From: Amphiscolops sp. MND2022 | Lineage: Eukaryota | Assembly (NCBI GenBank): GCA_964187785.1 | Contig: OZ076409.1 | Coordinates: 3,970,001 to 4,034,000 of the forward strand | Direction of reading: 5' to 3' | DNA length: 64,000 nt | Part shown: positions 20,267 to 54,039 of the stretch, in pieces | How positions within the stretch are numbered: position 1 is the stretch's first letter | How the letters are laid out: the number at the start of each line of letters is the position of its first letter | Position numbers and translations under genes: made by a program | The notes under the pieces: generated by a model | The model's database searches: none | Told to the model about the DNA's origin: nothing | The model's input: the letters and a program-made list of their open reading frames with translations, nothing else

Positions 20267-22209
20267 AAACCATAAATTTTTTAATGAGTTTTTCGGCATT
20301 GTGCGACCTAAAAAATACTTTTTTTCGAAAAAAAATCAAAATTTTTTTTTGAAAAATTTTTTTTCCAAATTTTTCCAATATTTGTTCCTTGAATGTTTTT
20401 GAGCCTAAGATATGGCGCCGACTTGGGACGTTCCCGTCTTGTTGTGTTTTGTGAAACGCAATAATTTATGTTATTTGAAACCAATTCAGTTTTCATGTTA
20501 CCTGCTATGTTGTTATTTGGGACTTCACCCACCAAAATATGGCATTGTTTTCCGAGATTTTTCCCCCTCCCCAAAAATACCCCACTGTAAAAGGAGCGTC
20601 ACCCACTGTTATCCCTTAAAATTACATTACATATGCCACAAATGTGAACTTTATCATCCAGTGTAAAGTGTATTTTCCGTAAATCGTATTCTAGTCAAGT
20701 TTTGCACCGTGTTCATCGCGGATTGTGATGCACGGTGTAATAGGAAATTGCGCATGGTAAACATAATGCGTGGTTGTGTAAAGTGGGTCATTTACTGTTT
20801 TAAGATCACTACGCGTAACGCCCAATCACACGTTTGTAACAAGCAAAACACGTAACGCGTTTCGAAATAATAGCGCGTTTTTATTGGCTGTTACTGTGAT
20901 ACAGTTCAGTAGTTAAACTACTGTTCTGGAAAAGAAACGCCGTGTGATGGACAAGCATCGCTTGCCTTGCTATTGAATGTTGCTAAATTTCACTGGCAAG
21001 CTTGGTACAATAGCGAGCCAATCACAATCGCATGCTGCCTGCACACTGTTATATTCGGGAAAAGAAACGCCGTCTGATGAGCATGCCTGGCTTACCTTAC
21101 TACTGTTATACTGTGGTTACTTTGTTACCCCACTGTTGTACACTTACAACTTGTCACCGATCTGTTACTGACTTCTACAACATATGTTTAACACGTCTTA
21201 TTTGATGAGCCACCTTGTCCGAATACGTCTACTTGCATTTCACTGAGAAACACCGTCACAACGCCGATATGCTATCTTGGCTCACAGAGTTTCAAAGTTG
21301 AAACTTCTAGTTCCCAACGTGTCTTTCTTCTTCTGTGTGACCGAAACATATTTTTTGGAGTTTCGAAGATTACTTGAATTACTTTTATTTTGCTTCTTTA
21401 GTTTGCGTTCTTTCGTCGATGTTACCCAAAACGTAACCTGCAGGTGACCCAACTCGTTTTATGTTGGTTAGGTAGTTAGTCATTAAAATCAGTCATATTC
21501 TCACAGCAGTTTTTATATTAAATTGTACGTTATCAAACAGAGGTGGATTTCTAATAAACAGATAACCTAAAAATTAAATTGAAACAAACTCTTCAAAGTC
21601 TGATAAATAATACACCCCATCTGATGTTTGTATTTCTGTTCCGTATTTTTCCAACAAGTATTGGTTTGTAAATGTTGAATATTCGTGGAATATTTGGTCT
21701 TTATTTTCAAATGAGTCAAACAATCCTTTATTATAAAGTAATTGAATAGTATCTTTGACTGCTTGATTTTTACATTTTTCCAATTCTACAAAAATGTTTC
21801 GTTCAAAGTGATTATGTGAAATGACTTGTTGTTCATTGGCTTGTTTGACTGCTTCCGAAATTATTTCTTTCTTCTTTTCTGTTAATTTATTTTTAATATC
21901 TTGTTCTAAATATTTCAAATTTATTTTTATATCTTCTATACTTTTATTTATATCTAAGAATAACTTTGCATTGACTACGATTTGTGTTTCATCATTGATA
22001 AATTGAATTTCTTCTCTAACTGTATTTCGGTATTTTGTAGGTTACCGAAGGCGCTTTGCGTATTAAATTTTTCTAATTTATCAGATACACCATCAACGGT
22101 GCTTTGCACATCTTTAAGTTTTATATTAAACAATTTGGTTTGTGATTCAAATTCTTTTTCAAGATTCTCAATCTTATCTTTTTGTAAGCTTTCGGCACTA
22201 TAACCAAAT

Positions 22210-23193
22210 TTATGAACTGACATTATTTATTTGACTATTATTATTCACATTTACCGGAGGGCAACTTCGCTGTACGCGTACAGCGCAATCGGTATGGAAA
22301 ATAATCATACTTTCTAACGTTTTGTTGTTAGATTTAAAATTGAATACACTTCTTAAAAGTTCTTGTTCATAATATTTTCCTTCTATTTGTTCGTTGTTTT
22401 CATCTACTGAACCATACGTAACTGGGTTAGTTGGATTCATTTTTTGTATTTTAAAAATTTCTCCACTCCAATTTGGTGTAAATCCTTTACTATATAAATT
22501 GCGTTTATCAGGAACTCTTACATAGCCTCCCACTTGGAATTTGGGTTGTTTACGCGATGCGCCTTCGGTATGCGAAGCCAGCTTTGCTGTGTTATGTTTA
22601 TAATAAATAATCTTTTTGTTAGGTATTAATTTTTGATTAGTTGAAATTTCAAAAGGTGTCATCTTAGTAGTTCCATGAAACGATTATTATATTTTTCCAT
22701 AGCAGTATCTAGATGTATCAACCAACAAGCTTTTCCTTCAATGTACATGGGTTCTTTAATTAAGTCTAAAAGTGTTCTATTGAATCGTTCAACAAAACAG
22801 CTTTTAAATCTGAATTAGTTGAATAAATATGAATGTTTTGTTCTTTTAGGAAATTCAAAAATGTTTTATTATAAACCTCTTTACCTCTATCTGACCAAAG
22901 TTCATCAGGTTTTCATTTTGCTTTTTCAATAAGACTTTTAAATGCAGTTGTAGTACTTTTTCCGGTTTTATCTTTGATGGGGATCGCCCATGCATACTTG
23001 TCAATGCTGTATGATTGTCAATTACTGTAAATACAAACTTGTAGTTTTTGTTATATTTTGATAAGCTAGACCTGTCAATGAGATCAAAACTCGAACACTC
23101 ATCTTCATAGTGAGTTTGTATTTGAATTCTTTGAAACTTCTAGATTACAGGAGAGAATATTTCTTTAGCAGTTTTTTTCTTCTTTTCTTTCAT
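22210..23193 (-). pseudogene. Polinton integrase, duplicated copy
   Basis: Reverse complement of 29158-30135, with additional frameshifts. Confidence 0.85.
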
Positions 23194-23207
23194 TTATTTA
23201 TCAATAA

Positions 23208-24060
23208 TTGAATGAAAAATTTTATATAGGTTCATTATGTGTAATTTTTATGATAGGTTTATATAATTATTGGTATTATATTAGACCTAGACATTACGAA
23301 AAATTATACAAAAAACTAAAACAATTCATGGGATTTAAAAAATCTCATTTAACTAACAAAGAAGAAGAACACGAACTTACTCCACCAGTTACATATACCA
23401 TTTCTCATATGTTAATTTATGGTACTAGTGGATCAGGTAAGACATCTTTCTGAAAACATTACCTAGACCAAACTAAATGCAAAGCCAGCGAAGCGGTATG
23501 CGTAGCCAGCTTTGCTGTATCAAATTTTATAGTATTCGGTAGCGATGAAACTGAATTCCGTCAAGAGAATTAGATACCTTTATTTCAATTAGAAAAAATA
23601 GAAATTGAATCACTTGCTAATAAAACGGTAAAACTGGATGATGCAGGTGCATATAAAAACCTTAAAACGAAGTAGAAGACTTTTTCATGTTTGGTAGACA
23701 TCATAATATACAAGTTATTTATCTTGCACACTATGCAAAGGATGTTCTCCCAGTTGTAAGAGAAAATTGTTTCAAGATCTTTACAACAATGAACAATCCA
23801 GATAGTTTCTTTGAAACAATAGTAAGCACTTATAGTATACCGAAGGAGCTTTGCTTAAAAGAACATTGGAAACAATATCGTAGTCAGTTAGAATTTGGCG
23901 TAATTGAATTTGATACTAGATCACAAAAGTATAAAATACTCAACCACAACTACCAAGTAGTATATGATACAACTAAACATAAATGGGGTCCCGAGGATTT
24001 TGTAAAATATGAAAGTTATTTCCTTACAGGTGAAGAATACAACAAACTCGAGGTGTTTTC
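23208..24060 (+). pseudogene. A32/FtsK-like packaging ATPase 1, duplicated copy
   Basis: IYGTSGSGKT (Walker A), LDDAGA (Walker B), GRHHNIQVIYLAH; stop codon directly after Walker A. Confidence 0.85.
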
Positions 24061-25320
24061 TAGGTGAAAAAAAATACAAATCTTGCAAGAATCTTGCAAG
24101 ATGTCTTGCAAGATCTTGCAAGACAATGCATTTTCCTGACAGGTTTCTTGCAAGATTCTTGCAAGATGAATCTTTAGCTTGCAAGATTCTTGCAAGACAA
24201 ACATTTCTCTTGCAAGATTCTTGCAAGACATGCAATTTTTAGTTTGTTGTGTTCAGCATGTTCCAAAAAGTCCTCGTTGCATGCGTCAGCCTCGTACCTT
24301 TGAAGTTCTAGTTTCACAGAAAGACGACCGTATGGCCATTTTTTGAAAGGTCGAAAAAAGCGTGTCTTCAAATGCCAAAAAAGGGACACATGGCGAGAGA
24401 CTGCAAGTCAGAGGAAAGCAGGGCGTGCTTCATGTGCAATAAGAAGGGCCATCTTGCAAAAGACTGCAAAACCAAGAAAGGGCAGTCCGGGGTCCAGCTA
24501 AGCTTGGCTTCTTCAGCTTCGGAAGCTTTGAAGGGGCTCCAAAGGAAGGGGACTCGAGTTTTTGGTGGACTCGGGTTGCAACGGGTTCATGCTGAAGGAC
24601 AGGGCTCTCTTCAAGGACCTCGACGATTCGTTCAACACCGATGTGGGAAATGCAAACGGGAGTCGAACACAAATGGAAGGTAGAGACACAGAACGCCGTG
24701 GGGTGGCGGACAGCCAGGGCACGATGTATGAGCTCGAGCTGAAGCAGGCCTTCTGGGTACCCACCTACACCTGCAAACTGAGTTCAGTAAAGATGTTTGC
24801 ATTTTTTCGGAAGTTCAAACGAAAAAGCGTGACTTCAGAGCTAGTTTGGGTTTGAGTTACTCTATCTTTGTGGAACTCTTTACTTTGGCACGAAAAGTGT
24901 GCCGTTCAAAAAGGACTGGATAAAAAACAATCTTTGCAAGAGCCGTGGTTTTTTCTCCGGAAACGTCGACTGTATGAAAACTTAGTAACTGTAACATGCA
25001 GGTTCTTTTGCTCCTAAAGCGCCCTTTGTCTAAGAAAGGAAACGTTCACCTGTGATTTCGTCTGTTTGTGTTGTGTCCCTCTCTAGAAGGAAAACTGGAC
25101 AAAAAACTATCCGGTGCCCATGTTGGTCACGTTTAGTGTTTTTTCGACAAAAAAAAGTTTTCTCTTCGTTTGATGTATTTCTTGCAAGAATCTGACAGAA
25201 AAAGTATTTCTTGCAAGAATCTGTCAGGTTCTTTCAAGAAATGCATTTTCTGCCAGAATCTTGCAAGATTTGTATTTTTTGTCAACATCTTGCAAGAGTT
25301 GTAATTGTTTTCAACCAGGG
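24060..25320 (+). mobile_element. Non-autonomous DNA element with TCTTGCAAGA palindrome arrays (CMC/EnSpm-like architecture)
   Basis: Clusters of the perfect 10 bp palindrome at 24081-24230 and 25180-25297; inverted ends (TACAAATCTTGCAAGA); right end TTTTCAACCAGGG. Further copies at 26327-26613 and 27192-28291. Confidence 0.75.
24350..24790 (+). pseudogene. Captured Ty1/Copia gag zinc knuckles plus protease fragment
   Basis: C..C.KKGHMARDC and CFMCNKKGHLAKDC (CCHC), followed by VDSGCNGFM...VGNANG (Copia protease DSG motif). Confidence 0.8.
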
Positions 25321-25480
25321 TTATGATGAATTTAAAAGTTTATGCAGAGAAGCATGGCGGAAGAAGTATAATTATTTATTAATAAATACGTTAGAAGATA
25401 AAAACAAAAACAAGTATAAAATATGCAATGAATCTAATCCGGTGTTCAAGGTGTTTAATCCACAAACGGAACCTTTTTAG
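25321..25480 (+). pseudogene. C-terminal fragment of packaging ATPase 2
   Basis: YDEFKSLCREAWRKKYNYLLIN matches the C-terminus of 42982-43908. Confidence 0.85.
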
Positions 25481-25541
25481 TAACTGAAGGAGCTTGTAAG
25501 ACCGAAGGTGCTGTGTATCAGCAGAGCTGGCTTCGCATGCT

Positions 25542-25905
25542 TTAGTGTTGATTTGTTGTAATGCATTGGTATTGTAATAGTTTATCTGCAATTGCTATGA
25601 TTTGTTCACTAAGCATAGGATTATCATTTCCTCGTACTTTTCCAAAATAAAATAGTTTTAATTGATCTACAAGCTCATCTGGATCAGATGGAAGAAAAAC
25701 ACAAATCAAAGATTTGCTCCGTCCAGGTGTAAAATTTAATCCACTTCCCAATTGGGATAGTTGATAAGGGATCTGTTGGTATATATTTTGATTAATCAAA
25801 TCTTTAATGAAATTATATCTCTTTGATTTTTTATCTCCATAATTTATATTATATTTCATATCATTCAATAAAGAATAAATTAGATTCACGTTGCTAATTT
25901 TGTTT
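25542..25905 (-). pseudogene. C-terminal fragment of the conserved Polinton PSDPDEL protein
   Basis: LPSDPDELVDQLKL...EQIIAIADKL, homologous to 41849-42847; repeated at 25904-26095 (+) and 26836-27183 (-). Confidence 0.85.
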
Positions 25906-26126
25906 GATTTGTGTTTTTCTGCCATCTGATCCAGATGAGCTTGTAGATCAATTAAAACTACTTTATTTTGAAAAAGTACGAGGAAATGATAATCCTATGC
26001 TTAGTGAACAAATCATAGCAATTGCAGATAAACTATTACAATACCAATGCATTACAACAAATCAACACCAAAGCATGCGAAGCCAGCTCTGCTGATACAC
26101 AGCACCTTCGGTCTTACAAGCTCCTT

Positions 26127-26326
26127 NNNNNNNNNNNNNNNNNNNNNNNNNNNNNNNNNNNNNNNNNNNNNNNNNNNNNNNNNNNNNNNNNNNNNNNNNN
26201 NNNNNNNNNNNNNNNNNNNNNNNNNNNNNNNNNNNNNNNNNNNNNNNNNNNNNNNNNNNNNNNNNNNNNNNNNNNNNNNNNNNNNNNNNNNNNNNNNNNN
26301 NNNNNNNNNNNNNNNNNNNNNNNNNN
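26127..26326. other. Assembly gap (200 N)
   Basis: Run of N. Confidence 1.
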
Positions 26327-28289
26327 TAAGAAAGGAAACGTTCACCTGTGATTTCGTCTGTTTGTGTTGTGTCCCTCTCTAGAAGGAAAACTGGGCAAAA
26401 AACTATCCGGTGCCCATGTTGGTCGCGTTTAGTGTTTTTTCGACAAAAAAGTTTTCCTTCGTTTGATGTATTTCTTGCAAGAATCTGACAGAAAAAGTAT
26501 TTCTTGCAAGAATCTGTCAGGTTCTTGCAAGAAATGTATTTTCTGCCAGAATCTTGCAAGATTTGTATTTTTTGTCAAGATCTTGCAAGAGTTGTAATTG
26601 TTTTCAACCAGGGTTATGATGAATTTAAAAGTTTATGCAGAGAAGCATGGCGGAAGAAGTATAATTATTTATTAATAAATACGTTAGAAGATAAAAACAA
26701 AAACAAGTATAAAATATGCAATGAATCTAATCCGGTGTTCAAGGTGTTTAATCCACAAACGGAACCCTTTTTAGTAACTGAAGGAGCTTGTAAGACCGAA
26801 GGTGCTGTGTATCAGCAGAGCTGGCTTCGCATGCTTTAGTGTTGATTTGTTGTAATGCATTGGTATTGAAATAGTTTATCTGCAATTGCTATGATTTGTT
26901 CACTAAGCATAGGATTATCATTTCCTCGTACTTTTTCAAAATAAAGTAGTTTAATTGATCTACAAAGCTCATCTGGATCAGATGGAAGAAAAACAAAAAT
27001 CAAAGATTTGCTCCGTCCAGGTGTAAAATTTAATCCACTTCCCAATTGGGATAGTTGATGAGGGATCTGTTGGTATATATTTTGATTAATCAAATCTTTA
27101 ATGAAATTATATCTCTTTGATTTTTTATCTCCATAATTTATATTATATTTCATATCATTCAATAAAGAATAAATTAGATTCACGTTTTAGCAACTTTTTT
27201 TGTCGAAAAAACACTAAACGTGACCAACATGGGCACCGGATAGTTTTTTGTCAGGTTTTCCTTCTAGAGAGGGACACAACACAAACAGACGAAATCACAG
27301 GTGAACGTTTCCTTTCTTAGACAAATGGCGCTTTAGGAGCAAACGAACCTGCATGTTACAGTTACTAAGTTTTCATACAGTCGACGTTTCCGGAGAAAAA
27401 CCACGGCTCTTGCAAAGATTGTTTTTTATCCAGTCCTTTTTGAACGGCACACTTTTCGTGCCAAAGTAAAGAGTTCCACAAAGATAGAGTAACTCAAACC
27501 CAAACTAGCTCTGAAGTCACGCTTTTTCGTTTGAACTTCCGAAAAAATGCAAACATCTTTACTGAACTCAGTTTGCAGGTGTAGGTGGGTACCCTGAAGG
27601 CCTGCTTCAGCTCGAGCTCATACATCGTGCCCTGGCTGTCCAGCACCCCACGGCGTTCTGTGTCTCTACCTTCCATTTGTGTTCGACTCCCGTTTGCATT
27701 TCCCACATCGGTGTTGAACGAATCGTCGAGGTCCTTGAAGAGAGCCCTGTCCTTCAGCATGAACCCGTTGCAACCCGAGTCCACCAATAACTCGAGTCCT
27801 CCTTCCTTTGGAGCCCCTTCAAAGCTTCCGAAGCTGAAGAAGCCAAGCTTAGCTGGACCCCGGACTGCCCTTTCTTGGTTTTGCAGTCTTTTGCAAGATG
27901 GCCCTTCTTATTGCACATGAAGCACGCCCTGCTTTCCTCTGACTTGCAATCTCTCGCCATATGTCCCTTTTTTGGCATTTGAAGACACGCTTTTTTTCGA
28001 CCTTTCAAAAAATTGCCATACGGTTGTCTTTCTGTGAAACTAGAACTTCAAAGGTACGAGGCTGACGCATGCAACGAGGACATTTTGGAACATGCTGAAC
28101 ACAACAAACTAGAAATTGCATGTCTTGCGAGAATCTTGCAAGAGAAATGTTTGTCTTGCAAGAATCTTGCAAGCTAAAGTTTCATCTTGCAAGAATCTTG
28201 CAAGAACCCTGTCAGAAAAATGCATTGTCTTGCAAGATCTTGCAAGACATCTTGCAAGATTCTTGCAAGATTTGTATTTTTTGTCAACT

Positions 28290-29143
28290 AGAAAACACCT
28301 CGAGTTTGTTGTATTCTTCACCTGTAAGGAAATAACTTTCATATTTTACATAATCCTCGGGACCCCATTTATGTTTAGTTGTATCATATACTACTTGGTA
28401 GTTGTGGTTGAGTATTTTATACTTTTGTGATCTAGTATCAAATTCAATTACGCCAAATTCTAACTGACTACGATATTGTTTCCAATGTTCTTTTAAGCAA
28501 AGCTCCTTCGGTATACTATAAGTGCTTACTATTGTTTCAAAGAAACTATCTGGATTGTTCATTGTTATAAAGGTCTTGAAACAATATTCTCTTACAACTG
28601 GGAGAACATCCTTTGCATAGTGTGCAAGATAAATAACTTGTACATTATGATGTCTACCAAACCTGAAAAAGTCTTCTACTTCGTTTTAAGGTTTTTATAT
28701 GCACCTGCATCATCCAGTTTTACCGTTTTATTAGCAAGTGATTCAATTTCTATTTTTTCTAATCGAAATAAAGGTATCTAATTCTCTTGACGGAATTCAG
28801 TTTCATCGCTACCGAATACTATAAAATTTGATACAGCAAACCTGGCTACGCATACCGCTTCGCTGGCTTTGCATTTAGTTTGGTCTAGGTAATGTTTTCA
28901 GAAAGATGTCTTACCTGATCCACTAGTACCATAAATTAACATATGAGAAATGGTATATGTAACTGGTGGAGTAAGTTCGTGTTCTTCTTCTTTGTTAGTC
29001 AAATGAGATTTTTTAAATCCCTTGAATTGTTTTAGTTTTTTGTATAGTTTTTCGTAATGTCTAGGTCTAATATAATACCAATAATTATATAAACCTATAA
29101 TAAAATTTACACATAATGAACCTATATAAAATTTTTCATTCAT
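28290..29143 (-). pseudogene. Packaging ATPase 1 of Polinton A
   Basis: Walker A IYGTSGSGKT, N-terminal hydrophobic segment; same stops as the left copy. Confidence 0.85.
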
Positions 29144-29157
29144 TTATTGATAAATAA

Positions 29158-30135
29158 ATGAAAGAAAAGAAGAAAAAACTGCTAAAGAAATATTCTCTCC
29201 TGTAATCAAGAAGTTTCAAAGAATTCAAATACAAACTCACTATGAAGATGAGTGTTCGAGTTTTGATCTCATTGACAGGTCTAGCTTATCAAAATATAAC
29301 AAAAACTACAAGTTTGTATTTACAGTAATTGACAATCATACTAAGTATGCATGGGCGATCCCCATCAAAGATAAAACCGGAAAAAGTACAACAACTGCAT
29401 TTAAAAGTCTTATTGGAAAAGCAAAAAGAAAACCTGATGAACTTTGGTCAGATAGAGGTAAAGAGGTTTATAATAAAAACATTTTTGAATTTCCTAAAAG
29501 AACAAAACATTCATATTTATTCCACTCATTCAGATTTAAAAGCTGTTTTTGTTGAACGATTCAATAGAACACTTTTAGACTTAATTAAAGAACCCATGTA
29601 CATTGAAGGAAAAGCTTGTTGGTTGATACATCTAGATACTGCTATGGAAAAATATAATAATCGTGTTCATGGAACTACTAAGATGACACCTTTTGAAATT
29701 TCAACTAATCAAAAATTAAAACCTAACAAAAAGATTATTTATTATAAACATAACACAGCAAAGCTGGCTTCGCATACCGAAGGCGCATCGCGTAAACAAC
29801 CCAAATTCCAAGTGGGAGACTATGTAAGAGTTCCTGATAAACGCAATTTATATAGTAAAGGATTTACACCAAATTGGAGTAGAGAACTTTTTAAAATGCA
29901 AAAAATGAATCCAACTAACCCAGTTACGTATGGTTTAGTAGATGAAAACAACGAACAAATAGAAGGAAAATATAATGAACAAGAACTTTTAAGAAGTGTA
30001 TTCAATTTTAAATCTAACAACAAAACGTTAGAAAGTATGAATATTTTCCATATCGATTGCGCTGTACGCGTACAGCGAAGTTGCCCTCCGGTAAATGTGA
30101 ATAATAATATTCAAATAAATAATGTCAGTTCATAA
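29158..30135 (+). pseudogene. Polinton retroviral-like (DDE) integrase, frameshifted
   Basis: FDLID, IDNHTKYAWAIP, WSDRGKE, KAVFVERFNRTL, YNNRVH...MTP, KGFTPNWS. Confidence 0.9.
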
Positions 30136-30876
30136 AGTCGGTTATAGTGCCGAAAGCTTACAAAAAGATAAGATTGAGAATCTTGAAGAAGAATTTGAAT
30201 CACAAACCAAATTATTTAATATAAAACTTAAAGATGTGCAAAGCACCGTTGATGGTGTATCTGATCAATTAGAAACGTTTAATACGCAAAGCGCCTTCGG
30301 TAACCTACAAAATACCGAAATAAAGTTAGAGAAGAAATTCAATTTATCAACGATGAAACACAAATCGTAGTCAATGCAAAGTTATTCTTAGATATAAATA
30401 AAAGTATAGAAGATATATAAATAAATTTGAAATATTTAGAACAAGATATTAAAAATAAATTATCAGACAAGAAGAAAGAAATAATTTCGGAAGCAGTCAA
30501 ACAAGCCAATGAACAACAAGTCATTTCACATAATCACTTCGAACGAAACATTTTTCTAGAATTGGAAAAATGTAAAAATCAAGCAGTCAAAGATACTATT
30601 CAATTACTTTATAATAAAGGATTGTTTGACTCATTTGAAAATAAAGACCAAATATTCCACGAATATTCAACATTTACAAACCAATACTTGTTGGAAAAAT
30701 ACGGAACAGAAATACAAACATCAGATGGGGTGTATTATTTATCAGACTTAGACGATTCAACAAGACAGACCGTGTTGAATACTCTAAAAAAAGACCAGTA
30801 CAAAGATATAGTTGACCTTAAATATAGAATGAAATTAACCACGAGCGATATCAATTTTATACTTTTCCAAAACTAA
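30122..30876 (+). pseudogene. Polinton hypothetical coiled-coil protein X1 (homolog of 52461-53237)
   Basis: HKxGYS N-terminus and KGLFDSFxNKDQ...TSDGxYYLSDL shared; frameshift near 30350. Confidence 0.75.
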
Positions 30877-30900
30877 AATTAAGTTTTTATATAATTTTAA

Positions 30901-31428: not shown

Positions 31429-31525
31429 ACTAAACTAAATTCTGAGTTTACTTTTTTAGGATAAATTTTTTAAGTAAAAATAAAATCAGTATAAAATTTA
31501 AATCCTAATTTTTATTCTTATTTAA

Positions 31526-42847: not shown

Positions 42848-42981
42848 TGCAATTGCAGAGTATGAATGCATATCACCTTCTCAACACCAAAATATCATTA
42901 GTTCTAGAATGGTTCCGTTTATAGATTGAAGATCATGTAATTTGGATTAGATTCATTACACACCTGGTATTTACTCCCATT

Positions 42982-43995
42982 TTAATCTTCCAATCTATTT
43001 ATTATTAAGTAGTTGTATTTTTCTTTCCATGCCTCTCTACACAAACTTTTGAATTCATCATAAGACATATCAAAACCAGCAATATCTCTATAAATGTGTT
43101 CAACATCTTTCAAGGTTTGTTGAAATAAAATGATTATATTTGAATTGTTTCTAATTGTTCTTTTGGGTACCTCAAAGTAACTCTGACTTAAATAATAAAC
43201 ATCACACAAGTTGTGTCGCCCTCTAGTAAAAAATGGATCTATTAATTTCTGATTGGTGTCTAACATGTCATCAAACACAACACAACAATTTTGAAAATCT
43301 TGAATACTCTCATCACCTAAATCTTCTTCCACTACCATGCCTTGTATTTTTGCACCTAGATCTGCATCCGCATATTGTTCAGGACTTCTCGTAAAGATAT
43401 ATATTTGTTTTTCGCGATAGCTCTCGCGAAGCCCTGCGTTAGCTCTCGCACTATCACTGCAACGCCCTGCATCACTGCAACGCCCTGCATCACTGCAACG
43501 CTCGCCCAATCGAATTAATTGTAACATATTTAATAACAAATGAAATTTACCACAAAATGATGGACCAACTAATAATGTACTATAATGCGTGGGAGCTATC
43601 GTGGGAGTTATCGCGGGAGCTATCGCGTTAGCTGTCGCGGAGCTTCGCGCATCATTATTGGCAGCACATTTAAAAGAATCTTTGATATTAATATAATCTT
43701 GTGCGTTAGCTATCGCGAAGCCCTGTGCGTTAGCTATCGCACGGCCTTGTTGCATATGCTGCTTCTTAATATGAGATTTTAAATAACTTTTATTTAATTC
43801 CCTATTACAAAATTCACACTTCACCTTTTTATTAAAACATTCTATACATGTACTGTACATTTTACCGTTTATATACTTATAAAAATTTGTATTGGAATCT
43901 GTCTTCATTTTATTACACTCTTTACATCTTTTTTCACTAGATCAATCATCACACACTGATTTTTCACAACTTTCATTACAAATTAAGCACTTCAT
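42982..43995 (-). pseudogene. Packaging ATPase 2 with Cys-rich Zn-finger N-terminus
   Basis: LLVGPSFCGKF, VVFDDML, FTRGRHNLCDVYYLSQSYF..IRNN (A32 family); ATG at 43995 followed by an in-frame stop. Confidence 0.88.
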
Positions 43996-44009
43996 TTATT
44001 TAGAGAAAA

Positions 44010-44330
44010 ATCATTAAATTCCTCTCGATTCCTCTAAGAATCACTCAGTTTCTCATCACTAAGTATCACTAAGCTAAATCTCTAAGAACCTCTAAGAATC
44101 ACTAGGTGTCTCTAAGACCCCTTATATTCACTAAATTCCTTTAAATGCCTCTCAGAAGGGCCCCTTAGAGAAACTGAGTGAAACACTAAATGTCTCTAAA
44201 TCCTCTAAATTTCTCTAAGAATCATTCCTCTAAGAATCACTAAGAGTCTCTAAATCCTCTAAATTCCTCTAAGAATCACTATATATTTTTTGTTAATTTC
44301 TTGCTAAATTCCTCTAAGAATCACTATGTT
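44010..44330. repeat. Degenerate CCTCTAAGAATCACT repeat array between the two ATPase genes
   Basis: Repeated CTCTAA(G/A) units, e.g. 44032, 44089, 44227, 44266 and 44311. Confidence 0.75.
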
Positions 44331-44375
44331 TTTTATGTTATTTTTGCCATTTTTTGCTAATTCCTCAGTGTATTT

Positions 44376-45479
44376 TTAGTAAAGTTTTTTTGCATGATCA
44401 AATATAATTTTCTTAAAGTCCTCTTTAACTGAATCACTAATTAGTGGTTGTTGCATACGCTCAACGTAGTTGTCTATTTTGGATTCATTCACTCTGATGT
44501 TATTTGGTTTGCAATGAGCTACATAACAATAAGCTATGTTGAGTGGCGTTATTTCAATTGTCTGGTCGGACATTGCCTCTAAAAATACCTTCAATCTGTT
44601 GTAATCATCACCGGTGAAAAAGTAACTTTCATAAGCAACGAGTTGTTCTGGGCCCCACTTACTCCGTTTGCTCGAATCATAAATTAAATTGTACCCATGG
44701 TTAAATACCTTATATTTCTGACTCCTAGTGTCAAATTCAATTATACCATAATCTAACTGATCGCGGTAGTATTCCCAATTAAGCCCATTCTTAAAAGAAT
44801 AAGCTTGTACAATCGACTCGAAGAAGTTGTCTGGGTTATTAATTGTTAGAAATTATTTACTACAGTTTTCCCTCACGACTGGAAGAACATCCTTTGCATA
44901 GTGAGCGAGATAAATTACTTGAATGTTGTGGTGTCTACCAAACCGAAACACGTCTTCTATGTTTGTTTTAAGATTTTTGAATGCACCTGCATCATCCAAT
45001 ATAACAATCTTATTAGCAAGTTGTCCAGTACTAACATTTGCCAACTGCTGTAGTGGCACAAAGTTTTGAGGGGGAAACTCACGTTCATCTCGCCCGAATA
45101 CTAGATAACTTTGTTGGACCTGTGTTAAATAATGCTTTAGGAAGGATGTCTTCCCAGAGCCACTACTGCCATAGATTATGAAATGCGAGTTGCTATAAGC
45201 GTTGTCCTGTTCTTTAATTTCCTGTTCGCGTTCCTGGTTTGTAAGATGAGAGTATTTGAACCCTGCGAATTGTAGTAGTTTTTTATAAATTGTTTTGAAT
45301 TGTCTAGGGCGAATATAGTTCCAATATATTGCCACAACAATACAAACCACAAAAATTATACACACCACAAACATTGGTTTTGTGATTGTTTTATAGATTT
45401 GTGTTTTCTGAAACCAATGTAGTTTCGCGCAGCTTCGCCCACTGCCTTCATCATTAATCAAACTATAATCAATATTCAT
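44376..45479 (-). pseudogene. Packaging ATPase 1 with N-terminal transmembrane segment
   Basis: MFVVCIIFVVCIVVAIYW; IIYGSSGSGKT; VILDDAGA; FRFGRHHNIQVIYLAH; frameshift near 44855. Confidence 0.88.
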
Positions 45480-45502
45480 TTCTATAGAAGAAATTGTTAT
45501 AA

Positions 45503-46414
45503 ATGAACATCAATCAAAAGGCAAAAGCTGAAACGGAGCTTCGCACAGAGCTTCGCAAAGAGCAGATTGCTAAAGAAATATTCTCTCCTATAATCAAGAA
45601 GTTTCAAAGAATTCAAATACAAAATCACTATAAAAATTAGTGTTGGAGTATCGATTTAATTGATCGCTCAAGTTTAAGTAAATACAACAAAAACTACAAG
45701 TTTATTTTTACAATAATTGACAATCATACTAAATATGCATGGGCGATTCCTCTTAAAGGTAAATCAGGAAAAAGTACAACTGAAGTATTCAAAAAACTAA
45801 TAGAAACTAGTAAAAGAAAACCGCATAAAATTTGGTCTGATAGAGGTAAAGAGTTTTACAACACAACATTTTTACACTATTTAAAAGAGCAAAATATTCA
45901 AATTTATTCAACCAATTCAGATTTGAAAGCTGTTTTTGTTGAACGATTCAATAGAACACTTTTGGATTTAATCAAAGAACCAATGTACATTGAAGGTAAA
46001 GGCAACTGGTTGAATCACATTAATAATGCTTTGGATAAGTATAATAATAGGGTGCATGGTACAACAAAAATGACACCATTTGAAATGAGTTTTAAGATAC
46101 CAATACACGCGATAGCTACCACAGCTTCGCCCAAGTGCCACGCAGCTTCGCCCAAGTTCCAAGTGGATGATTTTGTAAGAGTTCCTGACAAACGGAACAT
46201 TTATTCAAAAGGTTATACAACAAATTGGAATAGAGAATTTTTCAAAATACACAGCATTAATTCAACGAACCCAATAACGTACACTCTAAATGATGAAAAC
46301 GGAGAAATTATTCAGGGAAAATATTATGAACAAGGACTTTTAAGAAGTGTATTCAACTTTGAATCTAACAACAAAACGTTAGAAAGTATGAATATTTTTC
46401 ACAAAATGGAGTAG
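45503..46414 (+). pseudogene. Polinton DDE integrase
   Basis: SIDLID, WSDRGKEF, VERFNRTL; a single in-frame TAG at 45638. Confidence 0.92.
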
Positions 46415-46484
46415 TGTTCCACGCAGTTTTTACACACTTTTCCTCACACTTTTCACGTAGTTTTCCAATAATTTTTTATTATAA

Positions 46485-47743
46485 ATGAGTATGTTCTCTT
46501 TAAAAAATAAATACACTCTTGAGAAACCTATTCATAAAATTGATTTTATAAAGTATAGTCCGAGTAGTTTGGCGACATTCAATAACGCAAACTCGAATGT
46601 AAGTATCAGTTTGCCATGAGAAGATGCTTATATTTGTTTGCAGAACTCCTATTTATCATTAGAATTTGAAGTTCTTAAAAACGATAATACAAGATACACC
46701 AATGGTGATGAAATAAGCCTCGTTAACTTTGGGCCAATCTCTTTATTTAGTGAAGCTAAACTGACAACATCTAGTGGGAAACACCTGGAAAAAGTTGACA
46801 ATTTGCACCAGATTTCTTTAATGCTTAAACTTCTGACAAGCACTAGTCAAACTTCTCAATTGATGTATGGAATTGAAGAAAGTACTACTATCAGAAGACA
46901 AGAACTAACAAACAACAAAAATGAGAAAGGAAACCTTTTTTTGTCCGAATTAAATTAAAAGACCTGTTCGGATTTGCTGATCAAGAAAAAATAACTTATG
47001 GATTGGGCTACACCTTAAGTCTAAAACGTAACAACAACAATGACGCGATTTTAAGAAGTAATACAGTGGATGCAGCAAAAATAAGTGTAAAAGACATTGG
47101 TTGGTATATTCCACACTATACACCCAGCTTGGAAAACCAACAACTTGTCATGGATCAGCTCCTGAATAAAGACCCAACCGAGCTGTATTACACAGAAAGA
47201 AGTGTCTTTAGAAAAGATGTTAACACCAATAATAATTGGACATTTGAATTAGGCAACGCAAGCGGAAATAGCGGCGGCAGCTATCGCGGAAGTGAATCAC
47301 CCACTTTTATTATTGTTGGATTTCAAGCTAGAAATAAAATTGATTCACAAACACATGACAACTCTGTGTTTGACAGGCTGCCAATTAGTAGTGCTGTTTG
47401 TAAAATAGGATCAGAAAAATATCCCGATGATGGAATAGAAAGTGATTACGACCGCGACAAATATGATCAAGCATACAGTGAAATTGAAAACTTTTATCAC
47501 TTGCACTCTGAGTGTAATTTACTCAACCCATTTATTGATTTGCACAAATTCAGGACAAATTATAATTTTTATGTATTTGACCTGAGCAAACAAAAAGACC
47601 AAATTGCAAGTCAACCAATCCGTTTAGAATTTAAATTTAGCAATCAAATTGATGTAGCAGACTACATAGCTTATGCACTTGTACTAACCCCAAAACTAAT
47701 AAGTATTAGTAGTGATGGACAAAGGCATTTTGATTTATTATAA
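46485..47743 (+). pseudogene. Major capsid protein (double jelly-roll) of Polinton B
   Basis: Same motifs as 31526-32752; TGA at 46617 and a frameshift near 46935. Confidence 0.88.
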
Positions 47744-47852
47744 AAGATCTGCCGAAGATCTGCCGACCTTCTTTAATACATAAAATAATGATGATATTTA
47801 TAAAATGATAATAATAAAAAAAATGTAATTAGCTTCGCATAGCTTCACGCAA

Positions 47853-50800
47853 TCATAAAAGATCTGCCCGATCACTTATTAGATTTAAAAGCTCTTGATG
47901 AGTTAATTTTTCTTTCCAATACCAAACATTGAAATTAATTTCTTCATCTGTTTTCTTGCTACCGTCATCATTTATAGTTAATTCTTTATAATACAAACCA
48001 ATTAATTTCAAACAATATATACAAGGACAATCACCACTTTGTACGTGTTCATCCCATGATAAACTTTGTATTGGATTTAAGTACACACGCTTGTCATCAA
48101 AAGGATTCAAAGCTAGTTTATCTTGTTTCTGAACAGTTAGGTTGTGGGTATTAGATCTAATTGAATAATTAGTTTCGGTTGTTGTTTCAGAATTAAATAA
48201 TGAATTTATAAATTGTGAATATGGTGGTGTATGTTGTATTCCTTTTTGTTTTGATTTCTGCGTAGTTCCATAGCTAAAAGAATATGATTTAGATCTCAAA
48301 GCTACGAAGTTGTCTAATTCAATAATTGGTGATTTTCTATTTTCATTTTACCTATTACTTTCTTGTTGATTGAGTTGTACAATTCATGACTTGGGTCAAG
48401 CTCGCTGAAATCAAAATCATCTTTGAAGTATTCCAAATCATTTATAAGGTCTCCAGTTTTAATACTTAGAATGAATGAGTCTGTATCCATGTAATGCAGT
48501 TTGACACTTGAACTGTAGTATGGTTGTAATTTGTGATAATAAAACTCATACATTAACAATTTACTCAGTTCTAAAACAGAGAATCCCAAGTAAATTGGTT
48601 TATCAAAAACTGTCTTTTCTTTATCAAACTTGTAAACACTGAATTCGGAGTAATGATTTACAATACCTTTGAAGCTTAACGTGGATTGTCTTTTTATTAT
48701 TTGATTAATATTGGTGTGGGGGATAAACTCTAAACTAGTCCGGTCCCTAACATTTTCCATAGTCTTGCCAAAGAAGGCATTGTTCATTAATTTGTACAAA
48801 TCCTTCTCAAAGTTTGTTTTTGCTTTGGTGCGTTTTTGGGTGTTATGATCAATGTATTTTGCTAACCAAAGTGATTGTTTGAATCTGTAAATCGTATGTA
48901 TCTTTGTTACTTTCATCCCCAAATTCATGTAAAATTTGAACATCCTGTAGTGCATCATATAAATATATTTGTTTGTTAGATCACACATAAGTTTCTTGGT
49001 TGGTTTGTAGTTGGGTTGTTTTACACTGTTCATATACGTTGTAAACAACTCTGGATCCGCTTTTGTTTGATAAGGACATAGTGGAAAGTTTTCGGTTTTT
49101 TCTTTAATTTCAGCTGGATACTCTAAATCACTTTCTATAAAGTAGCCAAATTCATTATCATCTGGTGTATTCAAAATGTCTTCTTTAATTTCTTCTATTA
49201 GTAATTCATCAACATCGCATATGAAGCTCTGCATCTTTTTGAAGTGTCCAGTAGGAAGGTATTGACTCATTGCCCATCCATAAAGATTATTTGCATCAAT
49301 GTACAGTAATTTAGTGTTGGTGTCTGACTCAATGTAACGAGGTCCCATTACACTTGAAATTCCTCCACGGATGTTATTTTCAAGTAGTAATAATAACTGT
49401 TTGTCTTTTATGAAATCTAATTTAATATTGGTAAGTTTTAAACCAGCTTTCCATGTATAACCCGGTAGACTATAAGAGTACAACGGATTGATGCCATACA
49501 TAAGAGTGCTTGTTTCAACAAAGTTTTCGAACACATCAGTGATTTGTAGAACATCCATTTTTAAGTATAACATAGATAGTTCTTGTGCTATTGTAATGTT
49601 GTAAGTGTCAATCAATTGTTGGGTTCTTTTTATATCATCCTCACATGGGTAAGATTGTGTTAGTGTTGACCAAAAGTCTTCTTTTGTTAGATTTAGTGGT
49701 TCTTGCGTAGCTTCGCGGAAATTGTTAAGATTGAATTTTTCGTATGGATAAGCTAGTTTTTTCTTAAATAAACTAACAGTTAGGCCTTCATTTTGCATAT
49801 AAGGAAAATCATTTAATGATGTTATAAGTTTTTGTAGACTACTACTCAAAAATCTGTATGAGTCTAAAAACCTTAAACAACCTATTTGAACTGATACATA
49901 GTTTTCCATTGACTTTGGTATAATATTTATTGGCAACTTTAGATTATAAGCTGATGTTAAGAGTTCTTCAAATATGAGATGACAATCATAACCTCTTAAA
50001 ATATGGAAAAATATAGGAACAAACGCACTTGACTTTTTTTACAATTTAAATCACACTTGTTGTGGGCTGCTCCTCTGTACTTACCTGTTAGGTGATCGTG
50101 ATCTCTTACTTTAACATGCGAAGCACCTTCGGCCCCGCCGAGTGGATTTTCACAAAGCCAACACTCTTCTGCAAATTGAAATGATTCTTCTTCTTGGGGA
50201 GTTATTTCAAGAGGAATATTAGTTTCGAAATATTCCGATGCAATGTTTTCTAAAGTCAACATTTCATTTACAAACCATGTTACACAATCTACTCCAAAGT
50301 ATGAGTAGTACTTGTTTCGCGGAGCTCCGCCAAATGGTGAAATCAGATAAAAGCCTACTGCAATTGGAATTTGTTTAAATAATACTTTGGACTTGTCTGT
50401 GGGTGCAGCTTCGTGATATTTTGTGGGATCATTCTGAGGCTGATTAATACATTCAAAATCTTCATATACTCTTATTGGTATAGGAATTTTCATATGATAA
50501 TCTTCGAACTTTAAATGATCCTTCCAACTGAATGTGATATTAGTTGGTTGTTGTTTTTGACAACGGCCAATGTGTTGATTGAGAATATCCTCAGAACTAA
50601 ATGCAGTTAGACATCTTCTACACACCCATTTCTTGTGTGAATCTTTATTTATTAGACAGTGTAATTTTGTTATTAAGCAATAATGATTTTCAAATAGCAG
50701 CAAGTCTATTTGTGGTTGATCATAGTTTGTGGAAATGTGGATTGGTGTTAAAACTGTTTTTGTGAGTTCAAATACATTTACGTTTAAATTATTTAAGTTT

Positions 50801-51720
50801 TCAAACTTGGGAATATCTTTACCTTTCATAGGAAATTCTAAACCTTCTAGGTTGAGTTTATTGAAGTGCATTGAATAATTTGTTGTTCTACTTTTATTGT
50901 CCTCAACGGGATATAGCTTTGCTAGGATGCACCACAAAAAACAAAATTGATCATCATTTTTTATATTTATAATTGATTTATTATTCTTATATTTTTATGG
51001 CAACTCAACCCATGAAGAAGCTTGAATATCATTGACTTTATATACCTCCATTATAACATTGACAATACCGTTTAACACAAAACCTGATCCTTCTAATTGT
51101 TCATCATCTAATTTCTGCATTAACCTGTTGTGAACATTCTCATAACTACCGACGGCGCTCTGCGTGTGATTGTAATTAAAATCTGATTTAACCCATTTGT
51201 GAAATACAACTTCTTCTCCGCTGATGTATTTTGAAAACTTAGCTAAATAACTCAATTGGAACTTGTATTGGGGAAACAAGCTAGTTCTTAGCAAATCATT
51301 AATCTGTTCTTCAAGATGATGCGAAGCGACGCTTGTTGGATTTACTTTCAGTTTAATGTATCTTTTTTCATTCACAATTACTTTTACTCCATTACCGAAT
51401 GTGTTTTGTGTATTTCGTGTATCTTGACTAAGTTGATTGTTTTGACTTCTTAACGTGTGAATTTCACTTTGGAAATGTCTTGAATTACTTATATATTTAC
51501 CACAATCTTCACACCAAATTTGTGTAGCTTCACGTTGTTGTTTGTTTTTGTTTTTATGTTCATCTGAATTTAGATGATTAGACTTGTCAGGCAAAGGCAT
51601 AAATGTATTACATTTTTTACAATAATATTGATTTAATTTTTCTAAATGTTTTACTGATTTTAGATGATCTGATTTGTAAGATTTTTTATACATAGAATTG
51701 CAGGTATTACATTTCTCCAT
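47853..51720 (-). pseudogene. Protein-primed DNA polymerase B (Zn fingers, OTU-like, EndoVII, exonuclease, polymerase)
   Basis: QFCFLWCI...HYCLI (OTU-like), VRDHDHLTGKYRGAAHNKC, LRFLDSYRF, YIDANNLYGWAM, KLMNNAFFGKT, YMDTDS; frameshifts near 50995, 50040 and 48320. Confidence 0.96.
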
Positions 51721-51853
51721 TTCTTTTATTATAAAAAAATTAATTTAATAGCATTTAAATTTCTTTAAAATAGGAGTTATTTTTCATTTAATTTTATGTT
51801 AAATTTCATGTTAAATTTCATGTTAAAATTAATGTTCAAATTGAATAAATTAA

Positions 51854-52457
51854 TTATAAAAAACTGTTTGGTTTATGACTTGTATCGCATGGCTTCGCAC
51901 GCATGTTTTGTGTTTGAGTTTGATAATTTTCAAATTGAGTCACAAATCGTTGATATTCTTTTTCATCCACATAGTTGTCTTTTAGGCTAGCAGTGTAAAG
52001 GTGTCTAAAGTCATTGAGTGTCTTCTGAATAATAGCGTACTTAAGTTTATAATTTTGTTCTTTTTTCTTCAAATAACTAGAACAAATTTTAACAAGAATA
52101 CCAGTTGCACAACCAACTCCTGCAGCGATTGGAACAACTATAATACCCACACCAGTAATACTTACACACCAGTGTGACAGATGTTGAAGTTGTTCCAATC
52201 ACTATAATACCATCGAGGGAGTTAATTAGGTTATTTATTAGCTTGTATTTGGTGTATTTTTTCTTGTATTTCTTTTCTTCCAATTCATAATATTTCATCA
52301 TTAGACTAATGTTTTGAATAGAATTATTGAAACTATTTACTTTTTGTAATTCGCGTTGCAATTCACTTTGCAATCGCTTATTTATGAGAGTTTCAACATC
52401 ATATGGTGCGGAGGGACTGAGAGTGGGGGTCAGGGACGGATAGAGTTTTTGTTCCAT
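51854..52457 (-). pseudogene. Hydrophobic-hairpin protein X2
   Basis: LYPSL, SFNNSIQNI, SITGVGIIVVPIAAGV; frameshift near 52170. Confidence 0.75.
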
Positions 52458-52460
52458 TTA

Positions 52461-53237
52461 TTAATCATATAAAATGAAATTTATTTCCATTGGTGTTAAT
52501 TTCAAACGGTGTTTCATATCAACAAGGTCTTTATAGGAATCTTTTTTCAATGACTCTAAAATTGATTGTCTAATAGAATATTCTAAATCAGACAGATAAT
52601 ATTCACCATCTGAAGTAGGTATTGTTTTTCCATACTTTTCAAATAAGTGTGCTTCACTGAAAGTGAGGTATTGTTCAAATGCTTGATCTTTATTGGGAAA
52701 AGAATCAAACAACCCTTTATCATAAAGTAGTTGAATTATGTTTTTAGTTATAGTAATTTTATTCTCGTGCAGGCCATTAAAAAGTTTAAACATTTCATCT
52801 TCATTTAAAATCATTCCAGCTTGACCCGGTGTCGACAAAAACTTTAAGTTGTGGACTGTTAACATTTCAAAACTATTGTTGTGTATTAAATTTAGTACTT
52901 CATTTACTAAAGCAGTTCTTTGTTCGGTAGAAGATTTTTTCATATTTTGTTCTAACTTATTTATGGTTTTTGAAAGGTCTGAAAACTGGGAATAAATATC
53001 TTTGATTAACTTTGAGTCTAATAAAACATTTCGAATTTCCTGAGAGTCTAATAAGTTTCCTGATAAGTTTCCTAATTCATTTTCTAATTCATTTTCGAAA
53101 TCTTCTTTTAATTTGGAATGGGTTATTTGGGCTAATTTTTCTTGACTTTTTATCATATCTTTTAGCTCCTGATATTCCCGTGGTTTTAGCTGTTCACTAG
53201 AATAACCAAACTTATGAAGAGACGGAGTTTCATACAT
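52461..53237 (-). CDS. Hypothetical coiled-coil protein X1
   Basis: Intact 258 aa ORF homologous to 30122-30876. Confidence 0.75.
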   Translation of the reverse strand: MYETPSLHKFGYSSEQLKPREYQELKDMIKSQEKLAQITHSKLKEDFENELENELGNLSGNLLDSQEIRNVLLDSKLIKDIYSQFSDLSKTINKLEQNMKKSSTEQRTALVNEVLNLIHNNSFEMLTVHNLKFLSTPGQAGMILNEDEMFKLFNGLHENKITITKNIIQLLYDKGLFDSFPNKDQAFEQYLTFSEAHLFEKYGKTIPTSDGEYYLSDLEYSIRQSILESLKKDSYKDLVDMKHRLKLTPMEINFILYD

Positions 53238-53257
53238 TTATTAAAATGAAAAAGTTG

Positions 53258-54039
53258 AAAAATACAAAACCCATAGGCATGCCCACAGCTTCGCGCATTG
53301 GTGGAGCTACGCACATGTCTATGGTAAACTCAAAGCCCATCGGGAGTCCGTTCCACTAAGAGTTTCCACAGCAGGGATCATCCTTTTTAAGAACTGTGCC
53401 ATTGGTGATTATTCTCCCATAGCATGTAAGTTATAACAAAGACTGGGGGACGTTGGATAGAAGTGAACCCCAAACACTCCGGCCGAAGCCTTAACTTTAG
53501 TCAATGCTATAACCACTAAGCTATAGGAGACAAAGAGGTGTTAGTTTTACTTGTATAAATACCATTGTGAAACTGCGAAAGCTCCTGCGAAAGCTCCAAT
53601 TAACGAACATGTGTGTGTGTTTAACGGATGGTAGAAACTCATTTGTATTACGCGAAGCTCCGCACACAGTCCGGTATATTAACGTTGGCCGTACATTAAC
53701 GTTGGCCGTACATTAACGTTGGCCGTACATTAACGTTGGCCGTACGTTAACGTTGGCCGTACATTAACGTTGGTTCTACTTGGACGCTTTTACAAAGAAA
53801 TGAATTTTTGTTGGTTGCGAAGCTGCGGTAGCTATCGCGCGGATTGAATTGGAAAACGCCTGATTTTGTGCTTAAAATCAATGGTTTTGGGGTTTTTTAA
53901 TTTTTGGGGTTTTGTTGACCAATAAGGGAAAACCACTAATTTGGTGATTTATTTTTGGAAAATGCCTCTAAATCAGGGGTTTTTTGATCTTTTAATTTTT
54001 GGAGTTTTGTTGACCAATATCGGGATTTCCCCTACTACT
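53258..54039 (-). repeat. Right terminal inverted repeat (~782 bp)
   Basis: Mirror of the left TIR; 17 bp array x5 plus a partial unit (53678-53773). Confidence 0.97.
53413..53531 (-). ncRNA. Second TIR copy of the candidate structured RNA
   Basis: Mirror of 39457-39575; this copy has a GGC-TTCG-GCC hairpin (UUCG tetraloop). Confidence 0.5.

Follow-up and report, generated by a model that had tools for sequence, protein, structure and literature searches.

Two neighbouring Polintons, here called A (21590-38841) and B (38914-54039), carry a family of short GC-rich repeat units built on DNA mini-hairpin motifs; both lie in a 64,000-nt stretch of contig OZ076409.1 from Amphiscolops sp. MND2022 (the window, whose coordinates are used throughout). 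Among related copies, the units appear at new sites, grow or shrink as tandem arrays (from 1 to 4-5 copies), undergo local inversion, differ between lineages and pass through a filter on the mode in which they are read. We favour the explanation, to which we give about an even chance, that a small set of short hairpin repeat units, confined to this Polinton lineage, is spreading and expanding inside the element, with selection on the encoded peptides acting as a filter. A first-pass annotation of the window had proposed a micro-repeat system specific to Polintons and made of mini-hairpin motifs, and had claimed that it adds in-frame peptides at different sites in each copy. Both parts agree with the results described below: enrichment, stem and loop specificity, restriction to Polinton DNA, and the presence/absence patterns and tandem expansion of the units.

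Motifs were counted on both strands of positions 21596-54039 (32,244 nt without N) and compared with 200 dinucleotide shuffles. Reverse complements included, GCGNAGC occurs 48 times, against 2.02 in the shuffles (standard deviation 1.44, maximum 6), CCGNAGG 20 times against 1.90, GCGATAGC nine times against 0.15 and GCAAAGC 22 times against 3.00. The flanks show no GCGNAGC excess (left, 2 against 2.91 expected; right, 1 against 1.55), and each of the 22 positions singled out beforehand has a motif or a GC island within about 35 nt. A strict motif is present in 12 of the 21 GC islands of A and 16 of the 39 of B, compared with 1/58 and 1/48 in the flanks. Observed/expected CpG (28400-54039) is 0.51-0.64 in the Polinton background with GC islands masked, 0.93-0.98 in the islands and 0.90-1.03 in the host flanks. 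An origin of the motifs in chance, base composition, CpG effects or assembly error could draw on this CpG-poor background with its CpG-replete islands, and on the inverted duplicate around an N gap in A, which inflates the raw counts. We find such an origin scarcely credible and already contradicted: the shuffles reach at most 6 against 48, the excess persists in 24.9 kb of non-redundant Polinton DNA from which the inverted duplicate was removed, as well as in dozens of other copies, and the flanks have an observed/expected CpG of about 1 and no motif excess.

The motifs are organised in units of 9, 12, 18 and 21 nt, each with one or two motifs that have a GNA or GNNA loop on a GC-GC or CC-GG stem. 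The 12-nt dyad unit GCGNAGCTNCGC places one mini-hairpin on each strand, and the perfect palindromes GCGAAGCTTCGC and GCGGAGCTCCGC also occur; the 18-nt unit is ACGC(A/G)AAGCGCCTTCGGT, the 9-nt units are of the type GCGAAGCCA, and the 21-nt unit contains CCGGAAGG. According to the sections on loop and stem rules of PMC13037366, a review by the discoverers of the mini-hairpins, the only triloops that form mini-hairpins are GNA, GNNA loops such as GATA and GGAA form them too, and the stem may be GC-GC or CC-GG but neither CG-CG nor GG-CC; the same sections report that GCAAAAGC lacks a melting transition and place GCAAAGC among the non-formers. The enriched words agree with the mini-hairpin sequences of Hirao (GCGNAGC, GCGNNAGC and CCGNAGG, with GNA loops on GC-GC or CC-GG stems). 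In the non-redundant Polinton DNA, GNA/TNC loops stand on GC-GC stems 41 times and on CC-GG stems 13 times, compared with once on CG-CG and twice on GG-CC stems, the expectation being 1.8 for each. The outer bases of X-CGNAG-Y are complementary in 67 of 106 cases (G..C 41, C..G 13, A..T 8, T..A 5), against 30 of 128 in the flanks. Among 110 copies of the 18-nt unit, the variable loop base is T in 89 and C in 21, whereas the loop G is fixed in 108 and the loop A in 104, and the G is fixed although its change would be synonymous in the usual frame. Taken together, stem and loop specificity, outer-base complementarity and the fixed loop G and A suggest that what is constrained is a hairpin in DNA, and not a word or a peptide. 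The inclusion of GCAAAGC in the mini-hairpin family by the first-pass annotation does not hold, given its place among the non-formers in PMC13037366. We also considered GCAAAGC as deaminated GCGAAGC, the product of CpG decay. Variation in the 18-nt unit does fall at the CpG positions 2, 3 and 10, and the GCGAAGC form is found in 30 of the first 100 genomic matches listed; decay is a weak explanation, as there is hardly any variation at the CpG of positions 15-16, and host-flank CpG is close to 1.

Matches to these units occur elsewhere in the source genome (1.07 Gb, searched as a whole), and those sampled lie in Polinton DNA. The 16-mer GCGAAGCCAGCGAAGC has 126 genomic matches against 1 for a reversed control, and the 15-mer core of the 18-nt unit has 648 against 0. 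All sampled match loci were Polinton DNA (6/6 for the 16-mer and 10/10 isolated loci for the 15-mer core, or 16/16 together). Among 28 terminal-repeat loci, we used the 15 with exactly one recognisable element terminus and set aside 13; across these 15 termini there are 98 motifs in 33.1 kb inside the elements and 4 in 19.0 kb outside. The 15-mer core gave only single matches per contig among IMG/VR viral contigs, as would arise by chance in a collection of such size.

Individual sites were followed in two alignments, one of the N-terminal region of the polymerase (31 copies, 74-93% identical) and one of the B-type terminal repeat (29 copies). In each, units of 12, 18, 9 and 21 nt show clean presence or absence among related copies. 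Several of the sites lie on the minus strand in the polymerase open reading frame (ORF) of A. At 36176-36216, an 18-nt unit with a 9-nt repeat (TQSAFGAFG, N-terminal ORF) accounts for 36 nt, reduced to 18 nt in four related copies and absent from 26. A 9-nt unit of the GCGAAGCCA type occurs twice at 36098-36116 (TASLAS) and three times in locus L010, and the 21-nt unit, present twice at 35195-35236 (SEGQQSCTGRQQSC), is found in 1, 2, 3 or 4 copies in related elements. Two head-to-head 18-nt units at 35686-35729 (TQSASGTGIPKALC) form a palindrome with an 18-bp stem. Overall, the tandem series among the 31 polymerase copies comprise one to four copies of the 21-nt unit, one to three of the 18-nt unit, and two or three of the 9-nt unit. 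Tandem Repeats Finder assigns motif-bearing arrays periods of 9, 12, 18 and 21, with one row of period 11 whose consensus unit is 12 nt, and arrays without a motif periods of 10-17, 19, 20, 29 and 31.

A systematic list of clean insertions contains 14 site-level events that bear a motif, and every one is a multiple of three. Their junctions are ambiguous by 0-2 nt (5 nt in one case), and across the 14 events we found no target-site duplication, no similarity to the flanks and no recurring flank word; insertions without a motif in the same list are often simple tandem duplications. Three of the 14 fall in the non-coding terminal repeat, each exactly 12 nt long, where the other repeat has a 17-nt period, and intergenic motif arrays have periods of 12 and 21. 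One such array, 2.1 copies of a 21-nt GCTTCGC unit at 36793-36837, lies directly upstream of the polymerase ORF of A and in no long ORF; another, 2.3 copies of the 12-nt GAGCTTCGCAAA at 45536-45563, lies upstream of the ATPase ORF of B. From these non-coding cases, few as they are, three-fold length looks like a property of the units themselves.

Direct comparison of A and B, which align over about 9.7 kb at 67% identity overall (blocks of 71-83%), gives the same picture. The polymerase peptides to which the annotation had drawn attention are present in the translations, LNNLN-TQSASGTGIPKALC-INVF in A against LNNLNVNVF in B and GVDC-SEGQQSCTGRQQSC-ISWF in A against GVDCVTWF in B, as are SPFG-GAPR-NK and ENPL-GGAEGASHV-KVRDH in B. 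A strict GNA or GNNA motif is present in 12 of the 28 indels of 9-90 nt, and ten of these twelve are multiples of three, in line with the proposed frame-preserving differences; the other two lie around the start of an ATPase ORF, one intergenic and one at the ORF 5' end. For 21 of the 36 motifs in the homologous parts, the other copy has a gap at that position; a single site is common to A and B. Neither outcome named beforehand as contrary to the claim, a lack of enrichment over a matched background or motifs in alignable ancestral codons, was therefore found. The vocabularies also differ as suggested (A and B, respectively: CCGNAGG, 11 and 2; GCAAAGC, 12 and 3; GCGATAGC, 0 and 9; GCGNNAGC, 0 and 25).

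Further sites are spread over both elements. In A, an 18-nt unit in the C-terminal part of the polymerase (33285-33302, minus strand, GTQSASG) lies within a 33-nt A-specific insertion; another, in an 82-aa ORF (30284-30301, plus strand, NTQSAFGN), has its inverted duplicate at 22044-22061, and an A-specific stretch of 63 nt holds an 18-nt unit together with a GCGAAGC unit (30919-30955), where ORF 30901-31428 starts. The B polymerase ORF has the 12-nt perfect palindrome GCGGAGCTCCGC at 50319-50330, which adds GAPR and occurs only in B (1/31 copies), and, in its endonuclease-VII-like segment, an antisense 18-nt unit at 50118-50135 (GGAEGASH) that is sense at the same site in locus L024. Its N-terminal ORF has the 12-nt unit GCGAAGCGACGC at 51321-51332, again only in B, and a variant of the 18-nt unit at 51148-51165 (minus strand, HTQSAVG). 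The double-jelly-roll capsid ORF contains a 27-nt B-specific insertion (47271-47297, plus strand) with GCTATCGC, which is of the GNNA type on the other strand, and the integrase ORF a 21-nt array of 1.9 copies with GCTTCGC (46122-46161, plus strand). A second, weaker A32-like ATPase ORF of B (42982-43941) is heavily expanded in its N-terminal half by 12- and 18-nt arrays: a minus-strand cluster at 43412-43649 has 12-nt GCGATAGC units at 43412-43449 and 43591-43649 (5.1 copies), and an 18-nt array of 2.7 copies at 43453-43501, on the same strand, has no hairpin motif.

The way in which the 18-nt unit is read bears on selection. We found 99 occurrences of it in about 284 kb of Polinton DNA of the source genome, at about 50 flank-defined sites, a clustering that may split homologous sites. 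Open frames of 100 codons or more contain 26 of these 50, and the other 24 are not in a long ORF. The coding sites read TQSAFG in the sense direction (19), TEGALR or PKALC in the antisense direction (3 each) and RRRFA (1), and none of the 26 uses either of the other two sense frames, which would give the basic RKAPS or AKRLR. In the polymerase alignment, the sense unit occupies at least 6 distinct columns in constant phase. We read this bias as probable selection against basic peptides, which would mean that the genes were still of importance when the insertions arose. The existence of full-length polymerases (1,250-1,293 aa) that contain several unit insertions, some in clusters of 81 and 8 sequences, agrees with this. 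The recurrent peptide TQSA(F/S/V)G to which the annotation had pointed results from reading a single 18-nt unit in one of its modes.

Selection for short flexible peptides such as TQSAFG, or ordinary low-complexity loop expansion to which DNA structure is irrelevant, would explain this strong bias (19/26 coding sites) and the location of polymerase indel sites in less conserved segments (0.39 against 0.50 in a 91-sequence family alignment, with 101 of 10,000 random sets as low). We nevertheless consider it decidedly unlikely. The same units are used in both orientations and in three reading modes; they also occur in non-coding terminal repeats and intergenic DNA, with almost half of the 18-nt sites outside long ORFs; a synonymous change at the loop G is avoided; and stem specificity and complementarity are features of DNA. 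The lower conservation of the indel sites also gives indirect support to the suggestion that the units remodel protein loops; the AlphaFold model of the polymerase, built from 18 close sequences, has a mean predicted local distance difference test score of 31, too poor for loop placement, so this part of the claim stands on conservation.

Unit peptides are found in 15 of 95 close polymerase relatives and in none of 150 distant representatives. One distant relative, P0134, has a private insertion, PSTSAGLPTFAGPST, that resembles a short Ala/Gly/Pro-rich repeat, perhaps a hint of separate micro-insertions in other Polinton lineages. The G/A/R/P content of private insertions in distant polymerases is raised (0.224 against 0.156; 34 of 43 sequences); as this could be mere loop composition, we did not count it as a sign of the same system in other lineages.

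In the explanation that we favour, spread and expansion of the units would take place while protein-primed, strand-displacing replication exposes long stretches of single-stranded DNA. Stable mini-hairpins in this DNA would encourage slippage as well as short template switches, by which a unit is copied from another place in the same genome, and selection on a dense coding genome would then retain three-fold lengths and tolerable peptides in variable protein segments. Because the element genome is mostly coding, three-fold units would out-survive others. Some unit gains are inverted copies beside an existing unit, which yield a longer palindrome; such local inverted copies and the tandem copy-number series would both fit template switching and slippage.

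Several points weigh against this explanation. The spreading mechanism is one that we infer, and none of its copying steps was observed. The aligned copies are related by descent, so that many counts are not independent events, and junction microhomology of 0-2 nt gives weak support to microhomology-guided template switching. The two arms of the inverted duplication in A, 98.1% identical, differ by no unit-sized indel, which would fit a link to the element's own replication in a sample too small to carry weight. A hairpin motif is missing from about half of the GC islands, and an island is thus not always a hairpin unit. The dominant form of the 18-nt unit contains GCAAAGC, a non-former, and one of its two halves is therefore not a true mini-hairpin. 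Finally, in nearest-neighbour DNA folding of eight stretches, four gave z scores of -0.7 to 0, single units being no more stable than shuffles. This probably reflects a parameter set without a special GNA bonus, and it provides no positive evidence; the one clear exception is the head-to-head pair at 35686-35729, with -18.2 kcal/mol and a z score of -8.95.

The units might instead be moved by a dedicated enzyme that recognises small single-stranded DNA hairpins, comparable to the transposases of REP/RAYT (repetitive extragenic palindromic elements and their associated transposases) or to TnpA of IS200/IS605, or by the endonuclease-VII-like domain of the polymerase. Clean insertion without target-site duplication and the conserved hairpin signature would suit such an enzyme, and the polymerase does contain an Endonuclease_7-like HNH segment (50100-50200; residues 508-549 of protein P0040, which scores 25.6 bits where the cut-off is 23.6). 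It is located after the zinc-finger N-terminus and before the polymerase core. This segment (KVRDHxH...CN) is conserved across the whole 91-sequence family alignment, whose distant members have no unit peptides (0/150), and it is therefore not specific to the hairpin-bearing lineage. Moreover, no HUH, Rep or Y1 transposase family was detected in the 17 stop-to-stop ORFs of B at E values up to 0.1 (the rest of the genome was not searched), and no GTAG-type tag was seen. We regard a dedicated enzyme as unlikely, and as less likely than a cis-acting function of the hairpins.

The possibility of such a function arises mainly from the terminal inverted repeats of B. The left one (38914-39729) contains a 12-nt array of 2.1 copies (39391-39415) and a dyad (39325-39337), and the right one (53259-54039) a hairpin at 53288, a 12-nt array of 2.1 copies (53573-53597), a dyad (53651-53663) and motifs at 53817-53842. 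Both also have a 17-nt tandem repeat without motif, which differs in copy number between the arms (7.9 at 39181-39314 and 5.9 at 53674-53773) and reaches about 8 copies of a variant unit in other elements. Motif density in B peaks in the terminal repeats at 11.3/kb (18 motifs in 1,597 nt, both together), compared with 3.6/kb in ORFs and 1.3/kb elsewhere; the hairpin at 53288 is intact in 27 of 29 copies, and the GNA signature is kept even at a synonymous site. PMC13037366 describes mini-hairpins, CCGAAGG among them, at the sites where single strands are primed in phage G4 and plasmid ssiA; it also notes that single-stranded DNA-binding protein (SSB) does not bind the hairpin region of G4. The hairpins of the Polintons may accordingly be positively selected signals needed on single-stranded or terminal DNA, for priming or origin function, SSB exclusion, packaging or nuclease protection, with the coding copies as spill-over from the terminal repeats. 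We consider this possible, though rather doubtful. Most sites are shared by only a few copies (2-11 of 24 for terminal-repeat motifs other than the one at 53288), positions differ between A and B with one shared site among 36 motifs, the vocabulary is lineage-specific, and no spacing rule was seen; by eye, motif positions in B also show no apparent strand bias.

As regards the setting, B is complete at 15,126 bp and has inverted repeats of about 800 nt at its ends, termini AGTAGTA.../...TACTACT and a 6-bp target-site duplication, TAGTAT, on both sides. It encodes several proteins expected of a Polinton: an rve integrase (45641-46414; PF00665, E 2.5e-9, 37.7 bits, cut-off 32.6), a double-jelly-roll major capsid protein (46925-47743; PF21738, E 1.6e-20) and an A32/FtsK-type packaging ATPase (44853-45509; Pox_A32, PF04665, E 1.2e-6, 28.7 bits, cut-off 22.8). 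The long polymerase gene is split into three ORFs. No Pfam polymerase match was obtained for the window ORFs or for P0040, and a PDB profile search with the polymerase gave zinc-finger matches only and no polymerase structure. The family of 25,299 relatives has an invariant D-T-D-S, which we take to be motif C of family B DNA polymerases, and one relative, P0090, has a precomputed PF03175 annotation. ORF 39761-40165 resembles an adenovirus-type cysteine protease by eye only, with no Pfam or PHROG match. Rfam and tRNA scans of 21000-54500 gave no matches.

Polinton A, the right terminus of which (38841) is separated from B by 72 nt (38842-38913), is rearranged. Its positions 21590-25160 are an inverted copy of 27191-30755, with a 200-N gap (26127-26326) between them; the arms differ by 68 substitutions, eight 1-nt indels and one 8-nt indel. 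This is either a true head-to-head rearrangement or an assembly artefact. Clustered Polintons a few kb apart are also seen at other genomic loci in the genome match lists. A zf-CCHC zinc-knuckle ORF (E 6.7e-7) lies in a GC-richer stretch of A (about 44% GC; 24372-24855 and 27494-27760) that probably derives from a retroelement gag. Arrays of the 10-nt palindrome TCTTGCAAGA, with periods of 11, 29, 31 and 42 (24079-24230, 25230-25315, 26515-26607, 28121-28270), are a repeat system distinct from the hairpin units. In the left flank, a stretch of at least 40 nt (TTTAAGTAGTAAA..GCAAAATCTACATTTAGAAA) occurs four times (4876, 16818, 16999, 17185) and is unrelated to the Polinton termini, although AGTAGTA is common to both.

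The closest known systems appear to be the yeast mitochondrial GC clusters, the Rickettsia palindromic elements and the REP elements. Yeast GC clusters, for example in var1, are described in PMC8811140 as short GC-rich palindromes that are optional, mostly intergenic but also in frame in coding DNA, and regarded as mobile. They resemble the Polinton units as optional GC-rich palindromes in an AT-rich genome that are in frame when in genes. They differ in being tens of bases long, whereas the Polinton units are 9-21 nt and follow the GNA mini-hairpin rule; in having AG/TAG terminal repeats taken as a target-site duplication, of which the 0-2 nt junctions of the Polinton units show none; and in residing in an organelle rather than in a nuclear-integrated virus-like transposon. 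Rickettsia palindromic elements, according to the account in PMC10969869, insert in frame into unrelated protein genes, with peptides apparently compatible with the fold, and the Polinton units likewise add in-frame peptides. The bacterial elements are, however, about 100-150 bp long with a conserved peptide of their own, while the Polinton units add 4-7 codons, form tandem series and are used in both orientations. REP/RAYT systems have in common with them small, GC-rich hairpins that occur in arrays and increase in number within a single genome; the Polinton units are shorter, have no GTAG/CGTC tag, are carried by a eukaryotic virus-like transposon and are not accompanied by a Y1 (HUH) transposase in the searched ORFs of B.

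Two further comparisons concern the building blocks. The enriched words obey the loop and stem rules given in PMC13037366 for d(GCGNAGC), d(GCGNNAGC) and d(CCGAAAGG); the mini-hairpins treated there are single regulatory hairpins in phage and plasmid origins, in contrast to a dispersed, expanding and partly coding family whose hairpins are predicted from sequence. Slippage at in-frame micro- and minisatellites would likewise produce tandem series of 9-, 12-, 18- and 21-nt units, but alone it cannot account for the appearance of the same 12- and 18-nt units, in either orientation, at naive sites whose flanks are unrelated. Full-text searches within one literature library returned no report of GC-rich in-frame palindromes in Polintons or other eukaryotic virus-like elements, and a search for the heptamer gave nothing on Polintons or other mobile elements among the matches listed. 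Short GC-rich palindromes that invade coding DNA are known from organelles and bacteria, and in Polintons they are apparently new.

A bolder form of the explanation, which we offer tentatively and would place well short of an even chance, is that these units of 12-21 nt are the smallest self-propagating genetic elements yet seen. They would be hairpin 'hyperparasites', or else cis-signals that have been co-opted, and in either case adapted to the phase in which a protein-primed virus-like transposon replicates as single-stranded DNA. Three-fold length would be an evolved adaptation to coding DNA, and the loops of polymerase, capsid, ATPase and integrase would be continuously remodelled.

The enriched words follow DNA rather than RNA mini-hairpin rules, which points to a single-stranded DNA stage. 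To our knowledge, Polinton replication has hardly been studied experimentally, and such a stage would offer a sequence-level handle on it. The units also provide replication and capsid proteins with readily available in-frame variation. The vocabularies, which differ between lineages, may serve as markers for tracing active Polinton lineages, and the units could confound alignment-based dating of copies. They should therefore be of interest to the study of Polintons, of non-B DNA and of repeat-driven protein evolution.

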